NCBI GenBank assembly: GCA_001783185.1
Contig: MFQY01000053.1
Coordinates: 1 to 44,026 of the forward strand
Reading direction: 5' to 3'
DNA length: 44,026 nucleotides
Origin: Candidatus Magasanikbacteria bacterium RIFOXYC2_FULL_40_16
Lineage (GTDB): Bacteria; Patescibacteriota; Patescibacteriia; Magasanikbacterales; UBA922
The notes beneath the pieces are model-generated. The model saw only the letters and a program-made list of their open reading frames with translations, did no database searches and was not told the origin of the DNA. Position numbers and translations under genes: made by a program. Position 1 is the first letter of the stretch. The number at the start of each line of letters is the position of its first letter. Positions 1,707 through 41,003 of this stretch are shown piece by piece.

Positions 1707-2270
1707 TTAATATTGTCTAAACGACACCGTAGTCGTCAAAGTCACCCTGCTCTGATCTTGAACCTCAGACGAGGGTGTATCAAAAGAAGCAGTAATGGAA
1801 ATCCGCACCGCCTGATGCTGGTCGACTGAATTCAAATGCGTAAAAGTCAAACTCTCTACTTGGATTTTTTCCGAAACAATAATTTGTTCCACCTGTCCCT
1901 CTTTTTTTACATAAAGCCCGCCGTCGTCAACAAAAAAATCTACAAAAGTATAATCTTCTCCGGCAACCGCGTTTCTGACTGTTTCCAAACTTAACTGTCC
2001 GGGACTGGCGTCAAAAACACTGGTTGGCGTATATACACTGGAAGCATGTCTGACTTCCTGCGACATTGTCTCTAAAGCGCTTTTTATATTTCCCAACACC
2101 TCGCTCCGCGCCTGCACATACATATTATTTCTGACCAATTGCGGCAAAAAAGCGGCCACCATCGTCGCGACAATCGCCATAATCATCACATACATAATCA
2201 TCTCTACCAAAGAAAACCCAGCACCACTTTTTTTTGTAAAAAAAAGTGGTGCTGGGTAAACCCTCTTCAT
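1707..2270 (-). CDS. type IV pilin-like pseudopilin (prepilin leader MKRVYPAPLFFTKKSGAG|FSLVEM)
   Basis: Class III signal peptide: G|F cleavage site, Glu at +5 and a hydrophobic helix (IMYVMIMAIVATMVAAF). The ORF track extends to 2345, but the ATG at 2270 is the first start after the upstream half-repeat. The start is uncertain. Confidence 0.7.
   Translation of the reverse strand: MKRVYPAPLFFTKKSGAGFSLVEMIMYVMIMAIVATMVAAFLPQLVRNNMYVQARSEVLGNIKSALETMSQEVRHASSVYTPTSVFDASPGQLSLETVRNAVAGEDYTFVDFFVDDGGLYVKKEGQVEQIIVSEKIQVESLTFTHLNSVDQHQAVRISITASFDTPSSEVQDQSRVTLTTTVSFRQY
2217..2256. repeat. perfect palindrome CCCAGCACCAC-T8-GT-A8-GTGGTGCTGGG inside the pseudopilin leader codons
   Basis: Read directly: 19-nt arms, and the right arm encodes ..SGAG of the prepilin cleavage site. 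A half-copy (AAAAAAAGTGGTGCTGGATAAAC) lies at 2286-2308. Confidence 0.9.
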
Positions 2271-2348
2271 TCTTTTTTTTTTCACAAAAAAAGTGGTGCT
2301 GGATAAACTCCCTCTAATCCCTTTATTTTTGGAAAGAAAAAACATAAA

Positions 2349-3137
2349 CTAATTATTCAAAAAATTTGTCAGATATGCCTGTAAAGATACAGCCTCATTA
2401 TTTCCCCGCTCAAGCCAAGAAACACTCGCGACAATTCTTTTTGTTTTCGGGTCATCAGTCCCCGCCTCGGCAATATCATCATTAACATCCCGATTAACAC
2501 TATATATCGTTATCGTTCTGGTAAAAACGCCGTTAATGGCCGGTTGCGCGACCGCTGTCAAAGTCCATCGTCCATCAACAATCACCGGATAATACGCCAC
2601 ACCGCTTGTTAAAATCGCAATGTCATCCGTCCAATTATTATTTTTTATCGTCCTGACTATTTCTACCCCCTCTTGAGCAAACTGGATCGCTTCGGTTTTT
2701 CTCAAACCCTCATGCATAATTTTATTTGAGAAAGAAATTATTCCATAAATTGAACTGAAAAAAAATAAAGCAATCGCAATCGCAATTATAATTTCCACCA
2801 TGCTAAACCCAGCACCACTTCTTTTTACAAAAGAAGTGGTGCTGGGTAAACCCTCCTCATTTTTTTTTACAAAAGAAGTGGTGCTGGGTAAACCCGCTCT
2901 CTTTTTAAGTTCCCTTAACGCATTACCATTGTGTTTTAATCTTTTTTCTCTCATACGAGCTAATTCTTCTTTATTATACGCTTCATAATATATAAGCTTC
3001 CATGGTTTATGTTGTCTTGTATAAAACTCTCCTTTTTTATTATGATAATCTAATCTCTCTTTCAAATTTTTTGTAGACCCTACATAGATTTTTCCATTTT
3101 TTTCACTCTCTAACAAATAAACATAATACATACTCAT
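2349..3137 (-). CDS. GIY-YIG nuclease domain (N-terminal ~85 aa) in one continuous frame with a type IV pseudopilin (..KRSGAG|FSMVEI..)
   Basis: The N-terminus YYVYLLESEKNGKIYVGSTKNLKERLDYHN...E..R.. matches GIY-YIG (YhbQ/UPF0213-like). It is followed by duplicated GLPSTTSFVK units, then a prepilin motif and a hydrophobic helix. No in-frame ATG lies between the two parts. The ATG at 2860, homologous to the neighbouring pilin's start, is out of frame by 1 nt. Confidence 0.6.
   Translation of the reverse strand: MSMYYVYLLESEKNGKIYVGSTKNLKERLDYHNKKGEFYTRQHKPWKLIYYEAYNKEELARMREKRLKHNGNALRELKKRAGLPSTTSFVKKNEEGLPSTTSFVKRSGAGFSMVEIIIAIAIALFFFSSIYGIISFSNKIMHEGLRKTEAIQFAQEGVEIVRTIKNNNWTDDIAILTSGVAYYPVIVDGRWTLTAVAQPAINGVFTRTITIYSVNRDVNDDIAEAGTDDPKTKRIVASVSWLERGNNEAVSLQAYLTNFLNN
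2808..2846. repeat. palindrome CCCAGCACCACTTCTTTT-TAC-AAAAGAAGTGGTGCTGGG in pseudopilin leader codons
   Basis: Read directly: 18-nt arms. An extra tandem half-copy (ACAAAAGAAGTGGTGCTGGGTAAACCC) lies at 2869-2895. Confidence 0.9.
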
Positions 3138-3146
3138 CCACTATTT

Positions 3147-4043
3147 TTATTGAACAGTCATATCCCCACCAAACACAGCCACAGTCGCGACTCCGTCCGC
3201 GGTAAAAGAAACAATGTCTTTTCCATCAACCGACACATCCAAAGCTTTTGTATTATATCGGCCATCCCGATGAATACATAAAACCGTATCAAACTCATCC
3301 AAAGAATGAGTGTGTATGCGTACAACTTGACTCTCGCCATCAACAACTACTGTCCCCGACCAATCAAATACCGTCTCTCCCGCGTCAAAATAATCCGCCA
3401 TCGTAATAACTTCATCCACATCCACTGTTCCGTCAAAATGCAATTCCAAATCACTGCTTCCTTGTAAACTCCAACTAAGGTCAAAATGTGTATGGCGAGA
3501 ATCAACTTCTCTGGTATCTTCCAATTCAATCGTTCCTTCCAACCCGACCCGTCCCGAAGGTAAAATCTTTATCGTCCGGCTTTCACTGTGATCATCGGCC
3601 AACCGTAAAATTACATCTTCAGTATGTCCTGTCGTCCCGGTCAGACGGTCAAACGCTATCGTATCGCTGGTGCCCTCCCAAATATCAGTGTATTCAACGC
3701 TTGTCGGGAAATATGTAATTTCATTTTCCGGGTCCAATGGATTCCAATCAAACCCTTTAAAAAGGGCATAAAAACCAGTCTCAAAATGAACGCCATACTG
3801 TTCATTATCTTCCGATGAAACCGTTTTTTCCGCCGCCAATTGCAAAGTGGCAATCACATCGCTGACTGAAGTGCTTAATTCCAATCTTTTTTGAAAAGAC
3901 CGGTAGCTAATAAGACCGGCCGTCGCTAAAATCATAATCGTGGCGACAACCAATAAAATTTCAATCAGTGAGAACCCAGCACCATTTTTTTCCCAAAAAA
4001 AGTGGTGCTGGATAAAACCTTTTTTATTTAAGTATTTAAACAT
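3147..4043 (-). CDS. type IV pilin-like pseudopilin, GspH/FimT-like with long C-terminal extension (leader ..EKNGAG|FSLIEIL)
   Basis: Prepilin motif with Glu at +5 and a hydrophobic helix LLVVATIMILATAGLISY. The ORF track starts at 4067; the second ATG at 4043 is equally possible. Confidence 0.7.
   Translation of the reverse strand: MFKYLNKKGFIQHHFFWEKNGAGFSLIEILLVVATIMILATAGLISYRSFQKRLELSTSVSDVIATLQLAAEKTVSSEDNEQYGVHFETGFYALFKGFDWNPLDPENEITYFPTSVEYTDIWEGTSDTIAFDRLTGTTGHTEDVILRLADDHSESRTIKILPSGRVGLEGTIELEDTREVDSRHTHFDLSWSLQGSSDLELHFDGTVDVDEVITMADYFDAGETVFDWSGTVVVDGESQVVRIHTHSLDEFDTVLCIHRDGRYNTKALDVSVDGKDIVSFTADGVATVAVFGGDMTVQ
3976..4011. repeat. near-perfect palindrome CCAGCACCA-T7-CCC-A7-GTGGTGCTGG in pseudopilin leader codons
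   Basis: Read directly. It is the third member of the same family, with a one-nucleotide bulge. Confidence 0.85.
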
Positions 4044-4120
4044 AAAAACATACAAGCATTTAAACATTACAATATGTTTGTATGTTTAAATGTTTAGATG
4101 TTTACATGCGCGTATTATAC

Positions 4121-39942: not shown

Positions 39943-40004
39943 ATAAATTGAACTTACGGTAATTAGACATACAAATTATACCGTAAGTTCAAAATATATA
40001 CAAG

Positions 40005-40306
40005 TGCCGAGGGCGAGGATTGAACTCGCGACACGTGGATTTTCCAATTTATTATCTTGTGTTTCCACAAGGATCGGACTATATCATCACCCCGACTCAG
40101 TCGGGGGTTGGGCGCTAATGCGAGATTATTGTTGGGGCTCACTCGCTAGTCTCTACACCTTCCCCGATACTTTTACCCATCGGGGCTTGGCTCGGGATTA
40201 TCCGCTAGTCGACGGACTTCCCCGAATTCACCCAATTTTCTCATCTTAATTTACATTAAGAGGGACCGAAATTCAGTCCACTGCTCTACCACTGAGCTAC
40301 CTCGGC
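40005..40306 (-). tRNA. tRNA-Phe(GAA) interrupted by a group I intron (exons 40275-40306 and 40005-40044)
   Basis: Exon 1: GCCGAGG TA GCTC AGTGGTA GAGC A GTGGA CT. Exon 2: GAAAA TCCAC GTGTC GCGAG TTCAATC CTCGC CCTCGGC A. Joined, they give a canonical 72-nt tRNA-Phe. Confidence 0.85.
40045..40274 (-). ncRNA. group I intron (IC3-like), 230 nt, inserted between U33 and G34
   Basis: The 5' exon ends in U, which pairs as U-G in a P1 helix (GGACU with GGUCC at intron nt 8-12). The intron ends in G. The core strings AAUCCCGAGCCAAGCC.. and ..GGAAGGUGUAGAGACUAGCGAGUGAGCCCC.. and ..AUAGUCC.. resemble the cyanobacterial tRNA-Leu intron core (recalled from memory). Confidence 0.8.
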
Positions 40307-40340
40307 TTTTTCGTGATAGACAGACTCACAATAAAGTGAG

Positions 40341-40416
40341 TGGTGGACCCTACCGGATTTGAACCGGTCACCTCTTCCATGCCATGGAAGCATTCTACCA
40401 AATGAACTAAGGGCCC
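40341..40416 (-). tRNA. tRNA-Ala(GGC), CCA encoded
   Basis: GGGCCCT TA GTTC ATTTGGTA GAAT G CTTCC ATGGCAT GGAAG AGGTG ACCGG TTCAAAT CCGGT AGGGTCC A CCA, with G3:U70. Confidence 0.9.
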
Positions 40417-40419
40417 GTC

Positions 40420-40683
40420 TTATTTTAATTTAATAATTTTATTTTCAATAATATCTTCTATAATATCTCGTCTTTTTAATTTTTTAATCTTATATTCAAT
40501 GCATCTAGCCTGTTTTATATCATTATAAATTTGAAAAAATTTTAATTCCCATTTACCCTTATTTTTTGTCGCGATATTTTTACCGGAATTATGTTCAGCC
40601 ATTCTTCGATCTAAATCAATCGTTGACCCTATATAATACTTGCCCGCTAATTCGCTATATATAATATACAGATAACCTACCAT
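40420..40683 (-). CDS. small GIY-YIG nuclease-family protein (87 aa)
   Basis: MVGYLYIIYSELAGKYYIGSTIDLDRRMAEHNSG...; paralogue of the N-terminal domain of 2349-3137. Its stop codon lies 3 nt from the tRNA-Ala 5' end. The start is taken at 40683; the longer ORF reads into the pseudo-tRNA. Confidence 0.75.
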   Translation of the reverse strand: MVGYLYIIYSELAGKYYIGSTIDLDRRMAEHNSGKNIATKNKGKWELKFFQIYNDIKQARCIEYKIKKLKRRDIIEDIIENKIIKLK

Positions 40684-40694
40684 AATATTATTTA

Positions 40695-40784
40695 CCAGCC
40701 ACCTTCCCGATGTGGCATCGGGACGTTCTACCAAATGCTTTTAGTCCCGATGAGCCAAAGGCGACATCGGGAAACTAAGGGCCC
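40695..40784 (-). pseudogene. decayed tRNA-Ala(GGC)-like copy carrying two TCCCGATG..CATCGGGA hairpins, truncated in the T-loop by the GIY-YIG gene
   Basis: Minus strand: GGGCCCTTAGTT-[TCCCGATGTCGCCTTTGGCTCATCGGGACTAAAAG]-CATTTGGTAGAAC-G-[TCCCGATGCCACATCGGGA]-AGGTGGCTGGTAAAT.. The intact gene reads GGGCCCTTAGTTCATTTGGTAGAATG[anticodon arm]AGGTGACCGGTTCAAAT. Confidence 0.7.
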
Positions 40785-41003
40785 GTTGATATGCCTCAAC
40801 ATAATACTAAAAATTTCACAAAAAGTCAAGGCGCGACATCATATTGATAACAATTATATCACACGCGGTTTTAAACAAACAAATCAAAACCACCCGCTCA
40901 AGAATCTGTGTGGGCGGTTTGTGTCTTGCCAGCTACACCGGCATCATCACCCGTCGCAATTTTTTTGAGCATATAATTTTTAAAGACTGAGTTAATATCT
41001 TTT

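Follow-up and report, generated by a model that had tools for sequence, protein, structure and literature searches.

What is to be made of a GIY-YIG nuclease that shares one uninterrupted reading frame with a type IV pilin? Such a frame lies on the minus strand at 2349 to 3137 of the stretch of DNA studied here, which comprises 44,026 nucleotides from Candidatus Magasanikbacteria bacterium RIFOXYC2_FULL_40_16 and is called the window below. The reading favoured in this study, to which a probability of roughly 60% is given, is that the locus holds a mobile, Ssn-like element made of hairpin arms and a GIY-YIG gene, placed at the Gly/Phe codons of the pilin (the slash marks the predicted point of cleavage) and expressed as a cleavable N-terminal fusion. 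The parts of the fused frame are as follows.

2349 to 3137, minus strand: fused ORF of 262 aa, with GIY-YIG nuclease, linker, prepilin cleavage site and minor pilin (ORF list, Pfam, NCBIfam)
2892 to 3131, minus strand: GIY-YIG nuclease domain (aa 3-82), ending ...NGNALRELKKRAG like its free-standing homologues
2871 to 2895, minus strand: left-arm copy 1, GGGTTTA plus CCCAGCACCACTTCTTTT, translated GLPSTTSF, on the C-terminal side of the nuclease
2808 to 2891, minus strand: linker of 28 aa (LPSTTSFVKKNEEGLPSTTSFVKRSGAG), two left-arm units plus the right arm, with Gly110 as its last residue
2825 to 2860, minus strand: out-of-frame ATG mini-ORF of 11 codons (ATG AGG AGG ... TTG TAA), within a dispensable 42-nt repeat unit
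2807 to 2847, minus strand: perfect palindrome, with left-arm copy 2 (2829-2846), loop GTA and right arm AAAAGAAGTGGTGCTGGG (2808-2825)
2349 to 2807, minus strand: mature minor pilin 2 (F111 to N262 plus stop), with FSMVE, hydrophobic helix and beta-sheet domain; orthologues P0003-P0012

The initial annotation, made from the sequence alone, described a GIY-YIG ORF in frame with a pseudopilin, and domain searches of the 262-aa ORF bear this out: PF01541 (Pfam GIY-YIG) matches aa 3-73 at 61.6 bits (cut-off 22.6), and a prepilin N-methylation motif spans aa 109-130; TIGR02532 scores 16.8 (cut-off 16.3), and PF07963 stays slightly below its cut-off of 21.2, at 18.9. The conserved start is probably ATG 3131 (MYYVY), which would give 260 aa; an exact database look-up of the 262-aa product returned no record because gene callers begin at this ATG. 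The ORF at 2349-3137 is also present in five other assemblies. Homologues of the nuclease domain are 81-104 aa long and terminate at ELKKRIGL, and the same left arm forms the C-terminal tail of P0024, P0018, P0026, and P0028. The best structural and sequence matches (Foldseek, phmmer) are 1ZG2 (UPF0213) and the nuclease domain of Slx1 (Foldseek match 7cq3_A, rmsd 1.4 A over 76 columns); among relatives of solved structure, UPF0213 BH0048 scores best (E 7e-6). TIGR01453 reaches 27 bits against a cut-off of 56, over residues 6-38 only. The catalytic domain model of GIY-YIG matches each of the 31 fusions aligned, with Y5, Y7, Y18, G20, R28, and H32 invariant and E52 nearly so, and the protein is accordingly called a nuclease here, its activity, substrate, and role in mobility being putative. 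The nuclease part consists of the ~82-aa catalytic domain without a separate DNA-binding domain, Pfam and NCBIfam scans of the fused ORF gave no Hint-family match of the kind expected of an intein, and no recognised transposase (DDE, HUH, serine, or tyrosine) was found, GIY-YIG being the sole enzymatic domain. To our knowledge, GIY-YIG enzymes form no recognised class of bacterial transposase.

The cleavage site, RSGAG/FSMVEIIIAIAIALFFF, has Gly-1, Phe+1, and Glu+5 followed by a hydrophobic helix, as expected of a class III site, and Gly110 is the -1 residue that closes the linker. Known prepilin leaders are short and basic, of about 5-30 aa; here 110 aa precede the cleavage point, folded nuclease included. 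An AlphaFold model of the fusion has a confident nuclease (pLDDT 92-98), a disordered linker (pLDDT <50 for residues 96-108), and a pilin helix at 113-166 followed by a beta-sheet. The locus adjoins genes for PilB, PilC, PilM, PilN, and PilO; a gene for prepilin peptidase (peptidase A24) was not found among the window ORFs scanned. Cleavage of the fusion by prepilin peptidase is predicted from the site, and we know of no demonstrated case in which the peptidase removes a folded domain of ~110 aa.

Two further minor pilins flank the fusion and share its repeats.

1707 to 2345, minus strand: pilin 1, start most likely ATG 2345, old leader MFFLSKNKG...; the leader also contains an extra left arm (2286-2303), a ATGAAGAGG unit and a perfect palindrome at 2216-2257 (KKSGAG/FSLVE)
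3147 to 4067, minus strand: pilin 3, GspH-like, old leader MFKYLNKKG/F (Gly-Phe codons 4014-4019); a solo palindrome at 3976-4011 is in frame after the old leader and gives a second site, NGAG/FSLIE

The sequence ATGAGGAGGGTTTACCCAGCACCAC, which begins at 2860 in +1 relative to the pilin frame and reaches TAA after 11 codons in the palindrome loop, does resemble ATGAAGAGGGTTTACCCAGCACCAC at 2270 in pilin 1, as had been noted, and the distance from ATG to GGT GCT GGG is indeed 44 nt at 2860 and 45 nt at 2270. The resemblance is that of repeat copies: CCAGCACCAC occurs seven times exactly and once with one mismatch, always at the three pilin 5' ends, against 0.86 matches expected from shuffles. 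The ATGARGAGG units belong to a recurring palindrome-arm module and are dispensable, with 42 nt missing from pilin 2 in L004 and 48 nt, including ATG 2270, from pilin 1 in L154, where the gene (196 aa) is still called from the upstream ATG. The same out-of-frame ATGAGG is found in the linker of L136. The proposal that ATG 2860 is the original pilin start, displaced by one nucleotide, therefore has to be given up, since the native start, known from alleles described below, is ATGTTTAAATGCCGT..., unlike this unit, and the unit is missing in L004.

No short-range inverted repeat in the window is stronger than the pilin palindromes, which have 20 nt at 100% (pilin 1), 19 nt at 100% (pilin 2), and 16 nt at 94%. 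The RNA folding z-scores of the three pilin hairpins are -6.7, -5.0, and -4.5, and the stretch 2800-2900 (101 nt) folds at -45.8 kcal/mol (z -6.7). The right arm in pilin 2 (2808-2825) codes for the K-R-S-G-A-G of the cleavage site, and the predicted fusion product carries ELKKRAGLPSTT upstream of SGAGFSMVE. The palindromes of pilin 1 and pilin 3 are best read as ORF-less derivatives that lie in frame within extended leader peptides; an orthologue of pilin 3 (L006) reads MFKCLNDKG/FTIVE and has no palindrome. Besides the three copies in the window there are many in CPR genomes. In pilin leaders, each of the 10 solo palindromes with a short loop shares the frame of an upstream start (chance about 2e-5), and solo palindromes elsewhere have matching 6-nt flanks, such as GTTGAC/GTTGAC in L043. 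RNase P was considered as a neighbour of the palindromes in L068 and L108, and Rfam gave no confirmation.

Near-identical genomes differ in whether this site is occupied. The window and L001-L004 are filled, while L152 and L154, from the same population, have neither nuclease nor palindrome, and pilin 2 there begins at its own ATG with a 22-aa leader, MFKC...LNDKKG/F (empty-site sequence AAAAAAGGTTTCAGTATGGTGGAA). The mature pilin 2 of the empty alleles is 99-100% identical to that of the window (the empty-allele protein P0197 is identical in this part), and L152 has zero differences over about 2.4 kb downstream. Filled and empty alleles are related by segment replacement rather than clean insertion: in the window, the native leader of pilin 2 and the intergenic region appear to have been replaced by the element, so pilin 2 would now depend on the nuclease start codon. 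Because of the two empty alleles, the GIY-YIG gene is considered a mobile or accessory insertion, and this half of the suggestion that the pilin decays after a mobile GIY-YIG gene has landed can be kept; the decay itself finds no support, the strain differences being mostly synonymous and the orthologues intact. The initial annotation had also held that relatives with an independent pilin start and no GIY-YIG gene would reduce the locus to two ordinary adjacent genes. Such relatives exist in L152 and L154, but they show mobility and do not make two ordinary genes of the window's single frame. The nuclease has 0 strain differences, but so do all the housekeeping genes, and SNP density is thus uninformative as to a recent sweep. 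Calls of 122 aa in the protein cluster are artefactual and stem from a scaffold with an N gap.

A search of GTDB genomes with a nuclease-only query gave 20 related loci, 19 of them evaluable for the junction; the same search with the pilin part found no relatives. A pilin lies directly 3' of the GIY-YIG gene in 20/20 loci, and the gene often stands between two arms. In 13/19 loci nuclease and pilin form an in-frame fusion without interruption, the linker being 5-51 aa long (binomial P 1.9e-3 against an expected 1/3), and the junction is in the GIY-YIG frame in 14/19 (binomial P 4e-4), values to be read with the caution that the loci may be partly non-independent. A stop in the linker, together with a pilin that has its own ATG, is found in 5/19 loci, so the fusion is not obligatory. 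Beyond these loci, the same architecture is found in at least 46 protein clusters at 50% identity. Of the best 150 cluster representatives, 48 are fusions, with lengths of 112-612 aa (191-612 with a single exception); a word-indexed nuclease search returned short free-standing proteins only, missed the query's own fusion, and was left out of these frequencies as biased. The fused pilin domains are varied (T2SSG, ComP_DUS, GspH); Gly-1 and Glu+5 are invariant throughout and Phe+1 nearly so. Linkers are merely 5-7 aa in L141, L144, and L145, the nucleases of L144 and L145 are remnants that are truncated yet in frame, and L128 has an in-frame TGA. Of the three possibilities that had been listed for the locus, a true nuclease-pilin fusion is thus the one that comparison with other genomes favours, and a hairpin-flanked GIY-YIG element of this predicted kind is widespread in Patescibacteria (CPR).

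That the palindrome goes with the nuclease gene is a point absent from the initial annotation. In 19/20 loci, and also at L146, the gene has an arm or a complete palindrome beside it on at least one side, as in Ssn genes, whose flanking hairpin repeat recurs in the genome. The nuclease ORF is ~250 nt long and the associated palindrome ~40 bp. The left arm consists of CCCAGCACCAC and a T run and always follows the Gly-Phe codons GGN TTY A; the right arm, an A run and GTGGTGCTGGG, always precedes TTT ACN. In 11/20 loci the left arm is located between -5 and +7 nt relative to the nuclease ATG, in a twelfth it is 48 nt upstream, and in at least 11/20 it is found within the linker. The arms form terminal inverted repeats of 10-16 nt that bracket the ORF and are 93% paired (19 loci). 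With left arms picked by best complementarity, double changes occur in 9/16 pairs, a covariation score that was reached by 0/500 shuffles. The codons of the site are near-fixed as DNA (Ser AGT 15/15, Gly GGT 18/18), and the Thr codon that follows is freely mixed. Old short leaders ending in Gly-Phe-Thr, for example MKKG/FT, remain directly 5' of the left arm in L126, L131, L132, L133, L136, L137, and many solo copies. Many copies have direct repeats at their flanks (GTTTAC/GTTTAC, GTAAAC/GTAAAC, GTTGAC/GTTGAC), with none at L128 and L129; in pilins these repeats are also the Gly-Phe-Thr codons. In the window copy a left arm is missing 5' of the nuclease, and this copy may be immobile.

Taken together, the arms and the junction suggest how such an element could live in a pilin gene. 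It would sit at the first codons of the mature pilin part, where its right arm would supply a new cleavage site, Lys-Ser-Gly-Ala-Gly/Phe. The nuclease ORF is usually stop-free, so translation would run straight into the pilin; the fusion protein would insert with the nuclease facing the cytoplasm, and prepilin peptidase would cut after Gly110 to give a normal mature pilin and a free nuclease. Release of these two products would make the insertion cheap for the host, an outcome akin to the splicing of introns and inteins. By analogy with the Ssn family, the probable target of the nuclease is its own hairpin in single-stranded form, and the nuclease probably drives the spread of the element, which resembles a selfish one in that it is recurrent in CPR bacteria and absent from sister strains. 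A stronger version holds that a hairpin-ended element homes to the Gly/Phe codons of all type IV pilin genes, that its right arm rebuilds the cleavage site and the host peptidase excises the protein, and that GIY-YIG is the mobility enzyme of a new class of transposable element; this version is tentative and its chances are put somewhat below even. None of the papers searched joins GIY-YIG with a prepilin or pilin fusion, or describes the palindrome.

The fusion could instead have been domesticated, with the nuclease a working part of the pilus or DNA-uptake machinery that reaches the membrane together with the pilin and is set free at the base of the pilus, where it could, for example, cut incoming single-stranded DNA like SsnA in Neisseria. 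The adjoining PilB, PilC, PilM, PilN, and PilO genes, the modulation of natural transformation by Ssn nucleases, the conserved catalytic residues of the 31 fusions, and the wide occurrence of the architecture are all consistent with such a role. A passenger is indicated, however, by sister strains of the same population that do without the nuclease and have a normal leader, by its attachment to many unrelated pilin types, by the truncated remnants in L144 and L145 and the in-frame TGA in L128, by a close paralogue at a non-pilin gene, and by the commonness of ORF-less palindromes. As these are the marks of a mobile or accessory element, domestication is thought unlikely.

Pilin 2 could also be translated separately, from Met62 within the nuclease (ARMREK), from Met113, which closely follows the cleavage site, or from a non-canonical codon. 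In the 5/19 loci with a linker stop the pilin does have its own ATG, located in the loop, and gene callers sometimes begin the pilin at Met113, although only on empty-allele contigs. In the window, reading of the sequence confirms the earlier statement that the middle pilin has no in-frame ATG of its own: ATG, GTG, and TTG are all absent in frame between the end of the nuclease (aa 82) and Gly110/Phe111. A start at Met113 would lose Phe+1 and with it the cleavage site, Met62 is variable (Leu, Ile, or Val in homologues), the 5-7-aa linkers of L141, L144, and L145 leave no room for a start, and the excess of in-frame junctions would go unexplained. Independent initiation is accordingly regarded as improbable.

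The palindrome might act as a terminator, attenuator, or translational control of pilin operons, its link with the nuclease being incidental. The RNA hairpins are very stable, and the pilin 1 copy fits a terminator-like pattern; it is the only copy to do so, and a terminator role was rejected. A T-rich tail is present in 1/3 copies only and is fixed by the Phe-Thr codons, the palindrome is translated as part of a coding frame, the nuclease ORF lies between the arms in many loci, copies with matching flanks are found outside pilin genes, and close relatives have no palindrome, all of which leaves a regulatory function very improbable. An equally slender chance is given to pilin 2 being a dead gene that lost its start when the nuclease landed and now decays behind a frame that is open by accident. 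The native leader and start of the empty allele are gone from the window, and two further minor pilins adjoin. Nevertheless, the strain differences (6 synonymous vs 2 conservative, P about 0.004) indicate that pilin 2 is under purifying selection, its 152 mature codons contain neither stop nor frameshift, its orthologues at 63-73% identity are intact, linker indels are multiples of three (42 nt), and the in-frame design recurs in dozens of lineages.

A one-base error, programmed frameshift, or bypass that joins ATG 2860 to the pilin frame has scarcely any standing: one T added to the T4 run of the palindrome (2829-2832) would give MRRVYPAPLLFVKRSGAG/F, as in pilin 1, and the hairpin between matched GGGTTT repeats is loosely like T4 gene 60, but the ATG unit is missing in L004 and the parallel unit in L154, no X XXY YYZ heptamer is present (the ATG-2860 frame reads CCA CTT CTT TTG TAA), the hairpin is not downstream of a candidate shift site, no take-off and landing codons match, and the nuclease ORF is stop-free even with the ATG in frame. 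The slippage that had been proposed for expression falls with it, the junction being invariant. Error in sequencing or assembly is ruled out by six Illumina-based assemblies from different samples and strains, in which the T run is identical; the junction is the same in the window, L001, L002, L003, and L153, and L004 differs solely in a clean 42-nt deletion of one repeat unit.

Among known systems the Ssn family is one of the closest to the element proposed here. Ssn nucleases recognise flanking hairpin repeats and have an IS-like NTS-ssnA-NTS layout (PMC11893778). Ssn proteins consist of a single GIY-YIG domain of ~80-100 aa; free-standing homologues of the window's nuclease measure 81-104 aa, and the domain is pilin-fused here and in at least 46 clusters. 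The likeness extends to the flanking 20-50-nt inverted repeat that recurs in the genome, to the IS-like layout, and to a link with type IV pili and competence. In contrast, the NTS/SRM consensus, CGTCATTCCCGCG...GCGGGAAT, is unrelated to the pilin palindrome CCCAGCACCAC...GTGGTGCTGGG, Ssn hosts are mainly Pseudomonadati where the present hosts are Patescibacteria, and NTS rarely lie inside genes, whereas the repeat described here is within coding sequence, the nuclease is translationally fused to its neighbour, and one arm encodes a peptidase site. Proteins over 150 aa were excluded from the Ssn study (Chenal et al. 2025, PMC11893778), and the fusions would therefore have been missed.

Homing endonuclease genes that splicing renders harmless (group I intron GIY-YIG enzymes such as I-TevI, inteins, IStrons) resemble the proposed element in placing a selfish nuclease in a conserved host gene, with presence/absence polymorphism at one site, decayed copies, and restoration of the host product after expression, which is predicted for the element. 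The locus described here has no ribozyme and no Hint domain, removal would fall to the host leader peptidase, it lacks the separate DNA-binding domain of I-TevI, and the element has inverted-repeat ends and, in many copies, repeated flanks that homing genes do not have. REP/RAYT, IS200/IS605, and MITEs share with it the scattered short palindromes that flank an enzyme gene, the ORF-less derivatives, and a short preferred target, GT[TA][TA]AC here and TTAC in ISHp608, but their enzyme is a HUH/Y1 or DDE transposase instead of GIY-YIG, and only here do copies cluster strongly at a single codon position in a single gene family and stay in frame. Type IV prepilins processed by PilD have the same Gly-1, Phe+1, Glu+5, helix, beta-sheet head, and PilBCMNO neighbours, and differ in having short basic leaders where the fusion has a 110-aa "leader" with a folded enzyme.

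Production and cleavage of the fusion would mean that prepilin peptidase is able to remove a folded 110-aa domain, and a mobile element could then use leader-peptide cleavage to stay harmless, a counterpart by proteolysis to what introns and inteins achieve by splicing. The means known so far of keeping inserts harmless are splicing of RNA, splicing of protein, and translational bypass. The pairing of GIY-YIG with hairpins would also reach the uncultured CPR radiation and be tied there to type IV pili, which CPR bacteria use for host attachment and DNA uptake, and the CPR elements would be a natural experiment on whether a nuclease of this sort mobilises its own hairpin.

The element is not confined to pilins: the paralogue at L146 occupies a non-pilin site with GTAAAC direct repeats. 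The window also has a second GIY-YIG gene.

40420 to 40683, minus strand: second GIY-YIG gene (61.3 bits)

It had been described as lying 5' of a gene with a duplicated 5' end, and that gene proves to be tRNA-Ala(GGC), 3 nt away, of which the first ~24 nt are duplicated upstream. The hairpins beside it (CGTCCCGATG..CATCGGGA) look more NTS-like than the pilin palindromes. As for annotation, dozens of database entries named "GIY-YIG nuclease family protein" or "hypothetical protein" are pilins, and pilin counts in CPR genomes are therefore too low; likewise, long pilin "leaders" that contain GLPSTTF, VYPAPL, or GFTQHHF are palindrome arms in translation.

At the second of three adjacent pilin genes, a conserved, polymorphic, hairpin-bracketed nuclease ORF lies at the Gly|Phe codons of the pilin, where such ORFs are usually in frame and the prepilin cleavage site is rebuilt. 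The features of the fused ORF are as follows.

2349-3137, minus strand: fused nuclease-pilin ORF, 262 aa
aa 3-73 of this ORF: GIY-YIG domain, 61.6 bits against a cut-off of 22.6
aa 109-130 of this ORF: prepilin N-terminal methylation motif

The nuclease part, which is similar to UPF0213 (1ZG2) and Slx1, ends in ...NGNALRELKKRAG and is followed by the linker LPSTTSFVKKNEEGLPSTTSFVKRSGAG, then by FSMVEIIIAIAIALFFF and the remainder of a minor pilin. Reading through the sequence between aa 82 and Gly110 revealed no in-frame ATG, GTG, or TTG. In the AlphaFold model, the nuclease domain is confident (pLDDT 92-98), the linker is disordered with residues 96-108 below 50, and the pilin part forms a long helix followed by a beta-sheet. 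The initial annotation placed the ATG at 2860 out of frame, and it is indeed +1 relative to the pilin frame with a stop after 11 codons; the accompanying comparison of 44 nt from this ATG with 45 nt from the pilin 1 ATG at 2270 is also correct. The two ATGARGAGG units compared there as pilin starts are nevertheless dispensable repeat units, because each is absent from a related locus. The L004 junction differs solely in missing one 42-nt repeat unit, so that ATG 2860 is gone and the frame is kept, while the pilin 1 leader of L154 lacks the 48-nt unit bearing ATG 2270 and the gene is still called from an upstream ATG. The pilin 1 start is most likely 2345.

The fusion is not peculiar to this genome. 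Used as the query of an exhaustive HMMER search, the 262-aa ORF returned 7092 matches, and 48 fusions were present among the best 150 cluster representatives (191-612 aa, except for P0166 with 112 aa). In 31 aligned fusions, Gly-1 and Glu+5 are invariant and Phe+1 nearly so, while in the catalytic columns Tyr, Arg, and His are invariant and Glu52 nearly so; the GIY-YIG domain is matched in 31/31 and N_methyl in 27/31. Because their pilin domains vary (T2SSG, ComP_DUS, GspH), the fusions do not represent a single inherited gene. In public records the proteins are listed as "hypothetical," "GIY-YIG nuclease family protein," or "putative endonuclease." A nuclease-only profile search of GTDB species genomes gave 20 loci from Levybacteria, Buchananbacteria, Saccharibacteria, and "Patescibacteria group"; a few of the MAGs are labelled Gammaproteobacteria, yet are CPR-like. 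All 20 have a pilin gene with (K)SGAG|FT(L/I)(I/V)E directly 3' of the nuclease. A stop-free nuclease ORF runs into the pilin at 13 of 19 evaluable loci, with linkers of 5-51 aa, against an expectation of 1/3 (binomial P 1.9e-3); L137, which reaches a contig end, is not among the 19. The junction is in the GIY-YIG frame at 14 of the 19 (binomial P 4e-4) when L128 is included, where the junction is in frame but a TGA lies inside the nuclease (codon 25; L128:2001-2240). This TGA is either a nonsense mutation or a sense codon in a lineage using code 4 or 25. Five related loci have a stop and a separate pilin ATG. A loop of ~77-83 nt recurs between the palindrome arms in L129, L135, L139, L140, L142, L150, and L151, and carries an ATG and a new basic pilin leader in five of them (e.g. 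MKRNVIMFFKKLLSNNLKSGAG|F) and GTG in L142; with its own pilin start, the loop constitutes a variant of the element in which nuclease and pilin are not fused.

A near-perfect ~40-bp palindrome, CCCAGCACCAC(T/A run)GTGGTGCTGGG, is present in each of the three neighbouring pilin genes, and its right arm encodes the Ser-Gly-Ala-Gly directly before the cleavage site. In pilin 3, the leader MFKYLNKKG|F is followed by the palindrome and NGAG|FSLIE. The palindrome 10-mer occurs as seven exact copies and one with a single mismatch, solely at the three pilin sites (0.86 matches expected from shuffles), and these palindromes are the strongest short-range inverted repeats of the window and fold very stably (z -4.5 to -6.7). 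The left arm is translated as GFIQHH, VYPAPL, or GLPSTT, and because the three genes use three frames it is conserved as nucleic acid and not as protein. Among the 20 GTDB loci, Gly-Phe codons GGN TTY A always precede the left arm, which lies -5 to +7 nt from the nuclease ATG in 11 and 48 nt upstream in a twelfth (L134), and within the linker in at least 11; the nuclease ORF is thus often inside the palindrome "loop." The arms covary, as in CCCCGCACCAT/ATGGTGCGGGG of L133 and CCACCTT/AAGGTGG of L131: with left arms selected by best complementarity, double changes occur in 9/16 pairs and 93% of cells are paired, a score reached by 0/500 shuffles. Junction codons are nearly fixed (Ser AGT 15/15, Gly GGT 18/18, Ala GCT 16/19), which shows that the right arm is constrained as DNA; codons for the next residue, Thr, are evenly mixed. 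Free-standing nuclease homologues (55-67% identity, 81-104 aa) terminate at ...ELKKRIGL, and several extend into a translated left arm (P0024 ...GLPSTTFS; P0028 ...GFTQHHF; P0018 and P0026 ...SPSTTF). These features assign the palindrome to the nuclease gene. Imperfect inverted and direct repeats based on ATGTTTAAATG cluster at window 4026-4108, spanning the pilin 3 start and the sequence upstream of it, and a similar repeat precedes the pilin 2 orthologue at L006:1984-2014.

The nuclease ORF at the pilin is a polymorphic insertion. In the L152 and L154 assemblies, pilin 2 is in an "empty" state, its mature part 99-100% identical (in L152, ~2.4 kb downstream is also identical), with no nuclease, SGAG, or palindrome at this gene; the pilin 3 stop is followed by a 150-nt spacer, a separate ATG, and the leader MFKCRASYRALLWYWGLNDKKG|FSMVE. 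The segment that differs between filled and empty alleles lies between the last pilin 3 codons on the left and the Gly-Phe-Ser codons on the right (GGT TTC AGT versus GGG TTT AGC). In the window copy, a left arm 5' of the nuclease is missing, and the change relative to the empty allele is a segment replacement. Relative to orthologues such as MFRCLNDKKG|F, the native empty-allele leader (L152:200-260, L154:470-530) itself has a 36-nt insert (RASYRALLWYWG) holding a small hairpin, CTCG-TAT-CGAG. At many loci, the left arm is directly preceded by a retained short, basic leader whose last residues are Gly-Phe-Thr:

L131: MKKG|FT
L136: MVIDKKG|FT
L126: MRKAFSILKSTAG|FT
L133: MKKLCPKSLG|FT

Short-loop palindromes without an ORF in pilin leaders are in frame with the upstream start in 10/10 cases (chance ~2e-5). 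Truncated nuclease remnants (last 24-33 residues) in frame with the pilin at L144:1900-2120 and L145:500-640 seem to be degenerate copies that persist because the pilin relies on the upstream start. The close paralogue P0017 (L146 and L147; ENA ERZ27254739, ERZ27254732) lies at a non-pilin site between a glycosyltransferase and a YfhO-family gene, with a solo palindrome upstream, a degenerate left arm, and a right arm inside the first YfhO-family codons in another frame (flanks GTAAAC/GTAAAT). Low-GC CPR contigs contain the palindrome at many further places, and its 6-nt flanks often match. A pilin 2 orthologue of 73% identity (L005:861-900) has the leader MYKKNIKKSGAG|F with a right arm and no left arm, and starts ATGTAT as does the nuclease (MYYVY); this leader may have arisen from an earlier fusion by internal deletion. 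In two Saccharibacteria contigs (L068:7703-7844, L108:~1228), the palindrome has an equivalent place beside a GAGGAAAGTCCGG motif, which we take to be typical of RNase P RNA, with no Rfam match to RNase P there at the gathering threshold.

Normal prepilin topology leaves the N-terminal part in the cytoplasm. Most likely, the fusion would be translated from the nuclease ATG and insert with the nuclease in the cytoplasm, and prepilin peptidase, cutting after Gly110, would separate the nuclease from a normal pilin. By analogy to the Ssn family, the freed nuclease may recognise its own hairpin and mediate spread of the element. A folded leader of 110 aa has no precedent known to us. The nuclease might instead be a domesticated one associated with the pilus, although the empty alleles, remnants, and non-pilin copies fit poorly with this. 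Separate internal initiation of the pilin fails at loci having 5-7-aa linkers. The data contradict each of the pseudogene, sequencing-error, frameshift/bypass, and terminator readings: the error raised in the initial annotation is opposed by an identical junction in the window, L001 (GCA_001784355.1, Candidatus Magasanikbacteria), L002, L003, and L153, and the pilin decay also raised there by six synonymous and two conservative codon differences between strains in the pilin 2 part (P ~0.004 under neutrality) and by intact orthologues at 63-73% identity. Across ~6 kb compared with L001-L003, strain differences are confined to pilin 2 and the 3'-terminal third of pilin 3; 2349-2810 and 3147-3500, directly flanking the nuclease, differ by 1.3-1.7%, while ribosomal, SSB, and other genes have 0 differences. 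Recombination, co-conversion tracts, or diversifying pilins could explain this pattern.

Among known systems, the pairing of Ssn nucleases with hairpin repeats comes closest, although the repeat sequence differs. Those nucleases bind the hairpin repeats on their flanks in single-stranded form and have an IS-like layout; proteins >150 aa were excluded from that study (PMC11893778). Like homing endonuclease genes, the element shows site-specific presence/absence, and like MITEs and IS elements it has inverted ends and derivatives without the ORF, but it lacks the defining enzymes and domains of all three. A literature search found no paper describing the nuclease-pilin fusion or the palindrome, and the putative strategy of excision at the protein level has a substantial chance of being novel in kind.

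The second GIY-YIG gene (40420-40683, minus strand; 36% identity to the first) lies 3 nt 5' of tRNA-Ala(GGC) (region 40330-40800, minus strand), and a hairpin-split duplicate of the first ~24 nt of this tRNA is found upstream. Two hairpins, CCCGATG..CATCGGG, are located nearby (40706-40722 and 40746-40771), one of which, preceded by CGTC, resembles the Neisseria NTS. The arrangement suggests a second hairpin/nuclease element, which likewise restores the 5' end of the gene it targets. A group I intron (Rfam RF00028, 93 bits, 40055-40283) splits a tRNA gene at 40004-40320 (minus strand); the anticodon of this tRNA, read by eye, is GAA (Phe), and the tRNA is not among the ARAGORN calls.
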